A stretch of DNA of 64,000 bases from Krischvirus LF73P4, in the sequence record OZ035795.1. One strand, given 5' to 3'. Shown piece by piece: positions 20,681 to 20,857 of this stretch. Position 1 is the first letter of the stretch, and every line of letters begins with the position of its first letter. The notes below the pieces were generated by a model. That model made no database searches, was not told where the DNA came from, and was given only the letters and a program-made list of their open reading frames with translations. Both the position numbers and the translations under genes were made by a program.

Positions 20681-20707
20681 AATAAAAAAGCCACTCCGAA
20701 GAGTGGC
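20681..20707 (-). terminator. rho-independent terminator (minus strand)
   Basis: GCCACTC-TTCG-GAGTGGC hairpin followed by T-run on minus strand. Confidence 0.65.
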
Positions 20708-20857
20708 TTATAGGGAAGGTAGCGAATCTTCCTTGTCTCCAACCTGCTAGCGGCCTAGCAAGTGAATGCTTTAGCGTACCGGATCACCCCATACGCTGTA
20801 ATAAATGCGGCTAGGTGACGTCCAAATCATTCTAACCGCGCTGTCTTTAGTTCACTA

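Follow-up and report, generated by a model that had tools for sequence, protein, structure and literature searches.

Which function, if any, is carried by the DNA between the last gene of one early transcription unit and the first gene of the next in a Krischvirus genome? The question is raised by positions 20582–20857 of the 64-kb window analysed here (the window being the whole stretch of DNA, 64,000 nucleotides), which form its longest stretch outside any ORF of at least 40 aa on both strands. An initial annotation of the sequence had described a promoter, a non-coding segment and a terminator on the minus strand and had offered two readings of it, a small stable RNA and a long structured 3' UTR. 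The architecture is correct and both readings remain the leading explanations; the fold, the presence throughout the genus and a constraint above that of neighbouring synonymous sites make a stronger case than that annotation could show.

Genomic setting and coding capacity

The window derives from Krischvirus, an RB49-like T4-type myovirus of Escherichia coli, and a 901-nt query around the element retrieved 58 phage records at 97–99.7% identity, all of them Krischvirus. The element lies on the minus strand within the early accessory region, where the gene order in RB49 and GEC-3S is early promoter, 52-aa ORF, dmd, small membrane ORFans, RB49p118, a CDS-free gap of ~278 nt and RB49p117. The equivalent of RB49p118 is the upstream ORF (20858–21076, minus strand), a 72-aa two-helix membrane ORFan and the final gene of the dmd-containing early transcription unit, dmd itself being located ~0.9 kb upstream of the element. 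This ORF matches phrog_15168 (no assigned function), appears as a CDS in the annotation of RB49, JSE and others, and is confined to the same 58 Krischvirus records as the element. Its end, as read from the sequence, displays three in-frame stops, TAA TAG TGA (20852–20860, minus strand), the middle one of which is replaced by CAG in phage E26. On the other side of the element, and outside it, the downstream ORF (20396–20581, minus strand; 61 aa, RB49p117 equivalent, phrog_7717) is expressed from the promoter of the repeated cassette described below. Homologues of RB49p117 that are 75–80% identical were found on IMG/VR phage contigs, mostly of ~49–52 kb (loci L005–L020), which suggests that this gene cassette may be common to a 165-kb T4-type myovirus and much smaller phages.

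In agreement with the previous description of a region without ORF, all six frames are stop-rich from 20857 to the terminator. One-base indels occur within the element in PHB13, Brandy, UViG and SSG23 and would shift any frame; a hidden small protein was considered and is ruled out by the six closed frames together with these 1-nt differences among phages. Hypothetical proteins are nevertheless annotated over the non-coding segment in FL15 (L045, 519–665), UPWr_E1 (L046, 485–628) and SSG23 (L040, 576–677). The first two CDS calls traverse the element and the terminator, the third is on the opposite strand and covers the terminator U-tail and the early promoter, and all three are probably spurious. 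No RNA is annotated at the element in any of the records inspected.

Two further ORF-free stretches were noted on the minus strand of the window. The second longest (9366–9564) has the same layout, with an ORF stop, ~200 nt of non-coding sequence and an intrinsic terminator at ~9305–9335; it matches 58 of 58 Krischvirus records, over most of its length in 50 of them, and its fold is weaker (z = -2.2). In the third (24716–24897, 182 nt) a terminator-like hairpin, AAGCCGATCC...GGTCGGCTT, is accompanied by a second one ahead of the next ATG.

The element is followed by the rho-independent terminator that had been assigned to it, with a 9-bp stem closed by a UUCG loop (20709–20688, minus strand) and a T6-A-TT run down to 20681, so that the whole intrinsic terminator occupies 20681–20709 as a PeSL-type stem-loop ending in U6AUU. 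It is annotated in GEC-3S, G2248 and others. An AT-rich tract (20657–20680) adjoins the hairpin and opens one copy of a repeated cassette (20607–20680, minus strand) in which this tract is followed by an early sigma70-type promoter and then by a shared 5' UTR. The promoter, with TTGACA at 20656–20651, a 17-nt spacer and CATAAT at 20633–20628, displays 11 of 12 consensus matches and is annotated in GEC-3S. Copies of the promoter and 5' UTR repeat are found at 19629–19689, 20607–20667 and 22599–22659, and they give rise to recurring spurious short ORFs such as ...YSIIHPSKRNT.... Promoter-early stem-loop (PeSL) cassettes are known from RB49 and phi1 (Arbiol et al. 2010, PMC2839356), and positions 20607–20709 correspond to their definition in being intergenic and repeated and in having a sigma70-consensus promoter, an AT-rich tract and a stem-loop, with the 150-nt element outside the cassette. 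At an ordinary PeSL junction the stop codon of the upstream gene lies within the AT-rich region just before the -35 box (PMC2839356). At one of the other copies in the window the stop directly adjoins the promoter repeat (19687), and at the other it precedes the terminator hairpin by ~6 nt (22693). The element thus represents an extra, non-repeated 150 nt between stop codon and cassette, where the other junctions of the window have ~0–10 nt.

We then determined how widely this extra sequence is distributed. By blastn, the 161-nt element is present as one copy in each of the 58 Krischvirus records, with 96.9–100% identity. At word size 11 it was absent from all other phage records and from plasmids, and matches in E. 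coli genomes were limited to the 22-nt terminator hairpin. The search for distant homologues combined blastn, two IMG/VR pattern scans, scans of metagenomes and bacterial genomes, and protein-anchored searches with both flanking ORFs, and it returned near-identical Krischvirus copies only as material for covariation analysis. The IMG/VR and metagenome collection yielded just four further near-identical copies, the other 14 IMG/VR matches to a 17-mer being due to chance and most of them apparently inside coding sequence; the pattern scan of bacteria, with one genome per species, did not find the element. Neither a paralogue nor a repeat was detected in the window or within any record, and no likeness to genes or to the cassette copies was seen. 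Family searches of the kind proposed in the initial annotation left the element unassigned: no match at gathering thresholds (Rfam 15) was obtained over the whole window, and ARAGORN reported no tRNA or tmRNA gene in it. In E-value mode the best Rfam score was 22.8 bits for RNAI (RF00106; E = 0.06, threshold 47), followed by a score of 21.5 bits (threshold 100); these weak scores are driven by generic hairpins and the terminator. The literature searched contains no description of a small RNA or of a transcriptome of RB49 or Krischvirus, this element included.

Fold and sequence constraint

In order to assess whether the segment has the properties of a structured RNA, folding energies were compared with those of shuffled sequences. 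Positions 20675–20866 of the minus strand fold with a minimum free energy of -65 kcal/mol (z = -4.0) and positions 20682–20853 with -63.3 kcal/mol (z = -4.76), and none of 200 shuffles was as stable as the native minus-strand fold. The plus strand reaches -55.5 kcal/mol (z = -3.5), 8 kcal/mol worse than the minus strand, a difference which fits the several G.U pairs in the minus-strand stems. The element is also a local GC peak (49% versus ~38–40% around it). When all 150-nt windows of either strand were scanned with a correction for GC, the best one over the region (20651–20800) ranked 20th of 5110, and its folding energy is unusual, not unique. Several of the most negative GC-corrected folding energies of the entire 64 kb are found at 9551–10375 of the minus strand, inside the ORFs 9565–10062 and 9950–10252 and around a copy of the motif TATAAATA at 10286–10293.

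Positions 20710–20857 fold into four hairpins, H1 to H4, that precede the intrinsic terminator (all coordinates on the minus strand). Only the last one had been recognised previously, and it is found precisely as claimed, with GGAAG and CUUCC enclosing a 9-nt loop at 20732–20714; the three hairpins that had been missed lie at 20839–20807, 20797–20773 and 20762–20743. The single-stranded 5' tail (20840–20857) includes UAGUGAACU, which could alternatively pair with the H4 loop region. In H1 (20807–20839) the 8-bp outer stem, GCGGUUAG/CUAGCCGC, is separated by an internal loop from an inner stem of 4 bp with a 6-nt loop, and H1 is trailed by the U-rich run AUUUAUU. The AU-rich linker AUUUAUUAC (20798–20806), unpaired in every fold and variable at position 20799, is a possible processing site of the RNase E type. 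H2 (20773–20797) has a 7-bp lower stem, a small internal loop, an upper stem of 2–3 bp and a variable tetraloop (GUGA, GCGA, UUAA or UUGA). In H3 (20743–20762) an 8-bp stem, CUUGCUAG/CUAGCAGG, carries a GCCG loop. The purine-rich linker UUGGAGACAA (20733–20742), which includes GGAG and is invariant in 23 sequences, is unpaired in single-sequence folds, with two of its bases paired in the RNAalifold consensus; it may serve as a recognition, seed or RegB-type site. H4 (20714–20732) consists of 5 bp around the loop AUUCGCUAC.

In the RNAalifold consensus, UAGUGAACU, which follows the stop codon, also forms a 9-bp long-range helix with the loop region of H4; we retained this pairing only as an alternative to H4. 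No covariation was found for this helix and nothing favours it over H4; it is partly deleted in the natural variant MAVA01000028, and it would be unfolded by terminating ribosomes and truncated in a late transcript.

Next, we looked at how the segment varies among phages. In an alignment of 16 sequences, to which six more genomes were added later, one of 44 columns is variable in the H1 region (20800–20843) and two of 56 in H3–H4, compared to eight of 27 in H2. By the same count, the upstream ORF has 30 variable third codon positions among 73, and the downstream ORF has 10 among 62. H1 and H3–H4 are thus far less variable than the adjacent third codon positions. A similar picture is given by UViG_3300005711_000030, in which the upstream ORF has ~78% DNA identity versus ~95% for the element and the conserved block begins ~20 nt before TATAAATA. 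The six added genomes brought new changes in the H2 tip, in the H3 loop and in the linker just before H3.

The position of these changes is consistent with the predicted fold. Substitutions sit in loops, linkers and the H2 tip, and six of seven changed stem positions are still paired, several of them through G.U pairs that would be A.C mismatches on the opposite strand. The lone change in H1 converts U-A to U.G and keeps the pairing. The lower stem of H2 shows A-U to G.U, G-C to G.U and one compensatory double change from G-C to A-U, its loop-closing pair is G.U, A-U or G-C, and altogether ten distinct H2 variants yield one folded shape. The seventh stem position is changed in phiS, where one pair of the H2 upper stem is broken and a shifted 2-bp register is possible. 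The H3 stem is invariant in 23 sequences, with a single loop change in JEP8, and H4 is invariant except for one extra C in PHB13. Covariation had been named as a check in the initial annotation, and the analysis shows 99.9% of cells paired and one pair changed on both sides. The pairs of H3, H4 and the terminator never vary, the observed scores were reached by 27–37 of 500 shuffles, and a single compensatory pair is too thin as proof. The fold is therefore thermodynamically supported and consistent with variation, and covariation falls short of proof.

Part of this low diversity could stem from recent exchange, Krischvirus genomes being mosaic and the junction a recombination hot spot. Alternatively, the segment may have no function as RNA and be either a DNA-level site (for recombination, replication or protein binding) or a neutral remnant, left behind by a gene since lost or by stacked cassette stem-loops and homogenised by recent recombination. 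The region is indeed hyperplastic and mosaic, with cassette-mediated shuffling (PMC2839356), and the downstream ORF is nearly as invariant as the element (12 of its 186 columns are variable). In FL15 (L045, at the equivalent of 20697–20700) the terminator loop UUCG is turned into its reverse complement CGAA with the stem unchanged, which is a hairpin-loop inversion at the DNA level. However, the fold is strand-specific, with G.U pairs and G.U-preserving changes that work on the transcribed strand only, and H2 contains a compensatory change. The element does not resemble any gene, cassette copy or other sequence of the window, and it is kept in 58 of 58 genomes of a genus that otherwise freely gains and loses ORFans. 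We consider the absence of an RNA function unlikely.

Predicted early and possible late transcription of the element

On the minus strand there is no terminator-like site between the early promoters (~22198 and ~22648) and the terminator of the element, so that transcription of the element is expected at least within the early dmd-operon mRNA, whose 3' end it would form. Continuity with the upstream gene had been named initially as a result that would speak against a separate small RNA, and to this extent it is predicted to exist.

A second source of transcripts may be the T4-type late-promoter motif TATAAATA, whose position and sequence are exactly those reported before (20859–20866, minus strand). 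The motif overlaps TAT AAA TAA, being embedded in the terminal codons and stop of the upstream ORF (CGA TAT AAA TAA, that is, ...Tyr-Lys-stop), and its substitution by TACAAGTA is synonymous for Tyr-Lys. It is not enriched in the 64-kb window, where four copies are observed versus 5.5 expected. In T4-type phages this octamer is essentially sufficient as a late promoter, and late initiation depends on gp55, gp33 and gp45. The remaining three copies in the window have the appearance of late promoters: each is followed 22–44 nt later by an ATG, and a purine-rich Shine-Dalgarno-like stretch separates the two; for this reason a functional late promoter at 20859–20866 is plausible as well, as judged from the sequence. 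From the geometry of T4 late promoters, transcription would start at ~20853 and give an RNA of ~170 nt. Unlike a typical late promoter, located ~20–50 nt before a ribosome binding site and start codon, this copy has no ORF behind it. Moreover, MAVA01000028 (L049, at the equivalent of 20844–20870) is a natural variant in which two A bases are added and GATATAAATAATAG is lost through a 14-nt deletion. As a result TATAAATA and the normal stop are gone and the upstream ORF now ends at the TGA of TGAACU, from which point onward the element is intact. The promoter part of the proposed architecture thus stands as an exact motif, but one that does not exceed chance expectation, overlaps coding sequence and is deleted in a phage that keeps the element.

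The arrangement of a promoter, a 150-nt structured RNA, an intrinsic terminator and genes is also the layout of a riboswitch or attenuator. The element might accordingly act as a leader for late expression, in which the fold, a ligand or a protein sets read-through into RB49p117 and the genes beyond, and this would account for a late promoter without an ORF directly behind it. In contrast to what such a switch needs, no antiterminator pairing was found: complementarity to the terminator 5' arm extends over 5 nt at most, and H1–H4 are unchanged in a fold stopped before the terminator 3' arm. We regard attenuation as highly improbable because of this missing pairing. Besides, no known riboswitch class matches in Rfam, a strong early promoter already serves the downstream genes, and the late-promoter motif is missing in MAVA01000028.

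The main rival to an RNA with a function of its own is a purely cis-acting structured 3' UTR that stabilises or insulates the early dmd-operon mRNA, with no independent RNA and no function in trans; its stacked hairpins would keep 3' exonucleases out and make termination more effective ahead of the next early promoter. The element is the last part of a polycistronic early unit, right before the cassette terminator, and this position suits such a role, as does H1 with its AUUUAUU run, which resembles a weak terminator. MAVA01000028 retains the element without TATAAATA, and no trans target emerged among the 117 translation-initiation regions of the window, the best duplex having p ~0.2 versus shuffled sequences (RNAduplex, which is crude on long sequences). 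The corresponding search of E. coli has no power for short seeds. Yet exonuclease protection needs stable hairpins and not an invariant sequence, and the sequence of H1, H3, H4 and the linker hardly changes while synonymous sites close by do vary. The other cassette junctions of the window do without a 150-nt extension, which is therefore not required for such a role. On balance, a purely cis-acting 3' UTR has an appreciable chance of being correct and is nonetheless rather unlikely.

Possible functions and relation to known RNAs

The reading that we favour, tentatively and at a little under an even chance, is that positions 20710–20857 and the terminator constitute a small RNA embedded in a 3' UTR, which would act at the RNA level through an invariant recognition surface formed by H1, H3, the linker and H4, with H2 as a spacer. 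Early in infection, given the layout of promoter and terminator, the element would form the 3' end of a ~1.5-kb sigma70-driven transcript that encodes dmd and five small membrane ORFans. A discrete RNA of ~130–170 nt probably accumulates too, and may originate from the TATAAATA late promoter (start at ~20853) or from cleavage in the AU-rich linkers. H1, H3, the UUGGAGACAA linker and H4 would then offer a sequence-specific surface to a protein or to a complementary RNA, H2 would contribute as a structural spacer only, with a freely varying tip, and the terminator hairpin with its U-tail would provide 3' stability and a chaperone-type handle.

A different function, which we hold to be quite unlikely, is that a highly structured ~170-nt RNA from the late promoter binds and neutralises, by means of its invariant hairpins, a host or phage protein, such as an RNA-targeting defence, an RNA chaperone or a nuclease. 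If true, lytic phages would have an RNA effector of a new class, carried in the same accessory unit as the antitoxin Dmd.

Least probable of all is an RNA decoy against host defence, be it a mimic of CRISPR repeats (Racr), a mimic of a tRNA or anticodon loop, or an antitoxin RNA beside dmd. Such a role draws on context alone, namely the early accessory location ~0.9 kb downstream of dmd. Against it, local alignment to the E. coli I-E and I-F and the Pseudomonas I-F repeats, with approximate repeat sequences as queries, was no better than for shuffled sequences (p = 0.08–0.43). ARAGORN detected no tRNA-like gene, a hairpin loop of 7 nt, the size of an anticodon loop, is missing from the predicted folds, ToxI-like tandem repeats are absent, and similarity to E. 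coli genomes is limited to the terminator hairpin. As a specific candidate, UUCACU followed by a hairpin and UUGGAGA resembles an I-F repeat, and it was rejected on the shuffle test.

Returning to the small RNA embedded in a 3' UTR, the strict retention of a non-coding element despite the rapid turnover of Krischvirus accessory genes indicates that it is probably useful to the phage. It is probably a phage regulatory RNA not described before, and that it represents a new RNA family confined to Krischvirus is credible. RB49-like phages are used in phage therapy, and the segment is best annotated as a candidate ncRNA rather than a protein-coding gene, a practical value that is modest at present. 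Temperate phages and prophages are familiar sources of small regulatory and protein-binding RNAs; to our knowledge, such RNAs are almost uncharted in virulent T4-type phages, with the exception of the T4 tRNAs and RNAs C and D.

How does the element compare with known systems? With ColE1 RNAI (RF00106) it shares three consecutive stem-loops followed by a terminator, but the 22.8 bits scored are far below the 47-bit threshold, and there is neither a plasmid replication context nor an antisense partner. With the PeSL cassettes of RB49 and phi1, positions 20607–20709 have in common the terminator hairpin, the AT-rich tract, the promoter and the shared 5' UTR, whereas positions 20710–20857 are single-copy, outside the repeat and inserted between stop codon and cassette. 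T4 RNA C and RNA D are small stable RNAs of the tRNA cluster with no assigned function. The element resembles them as a candidate non-coding RNA of a T4-type phage, and it differs in its genomic context and in that the window has no tRNA gene or tRNA-like fold; no sequence similarity to any non-Krischvirus record was observed. Close counterparts in organisation are the enterobacterial sRNAs derived from 3' UTRs through an internal promoter or processing site, among them DapZ, MicL and CpxQ. Unlike these, the element has a candidate promoter of the phage late type and is carried by a virulent T4-type phage, and its predicted body is much more structured than that of typical Hfq-type sRNAs. Like them, it lies at the 3' end of an mRNA whose intrinsic terminator it shares, it has a candidate promoter inside the end of the upstream ORF and a potentially cleavable AU-rich linker, and its terminator hairpin and U-tail form a 3' module.
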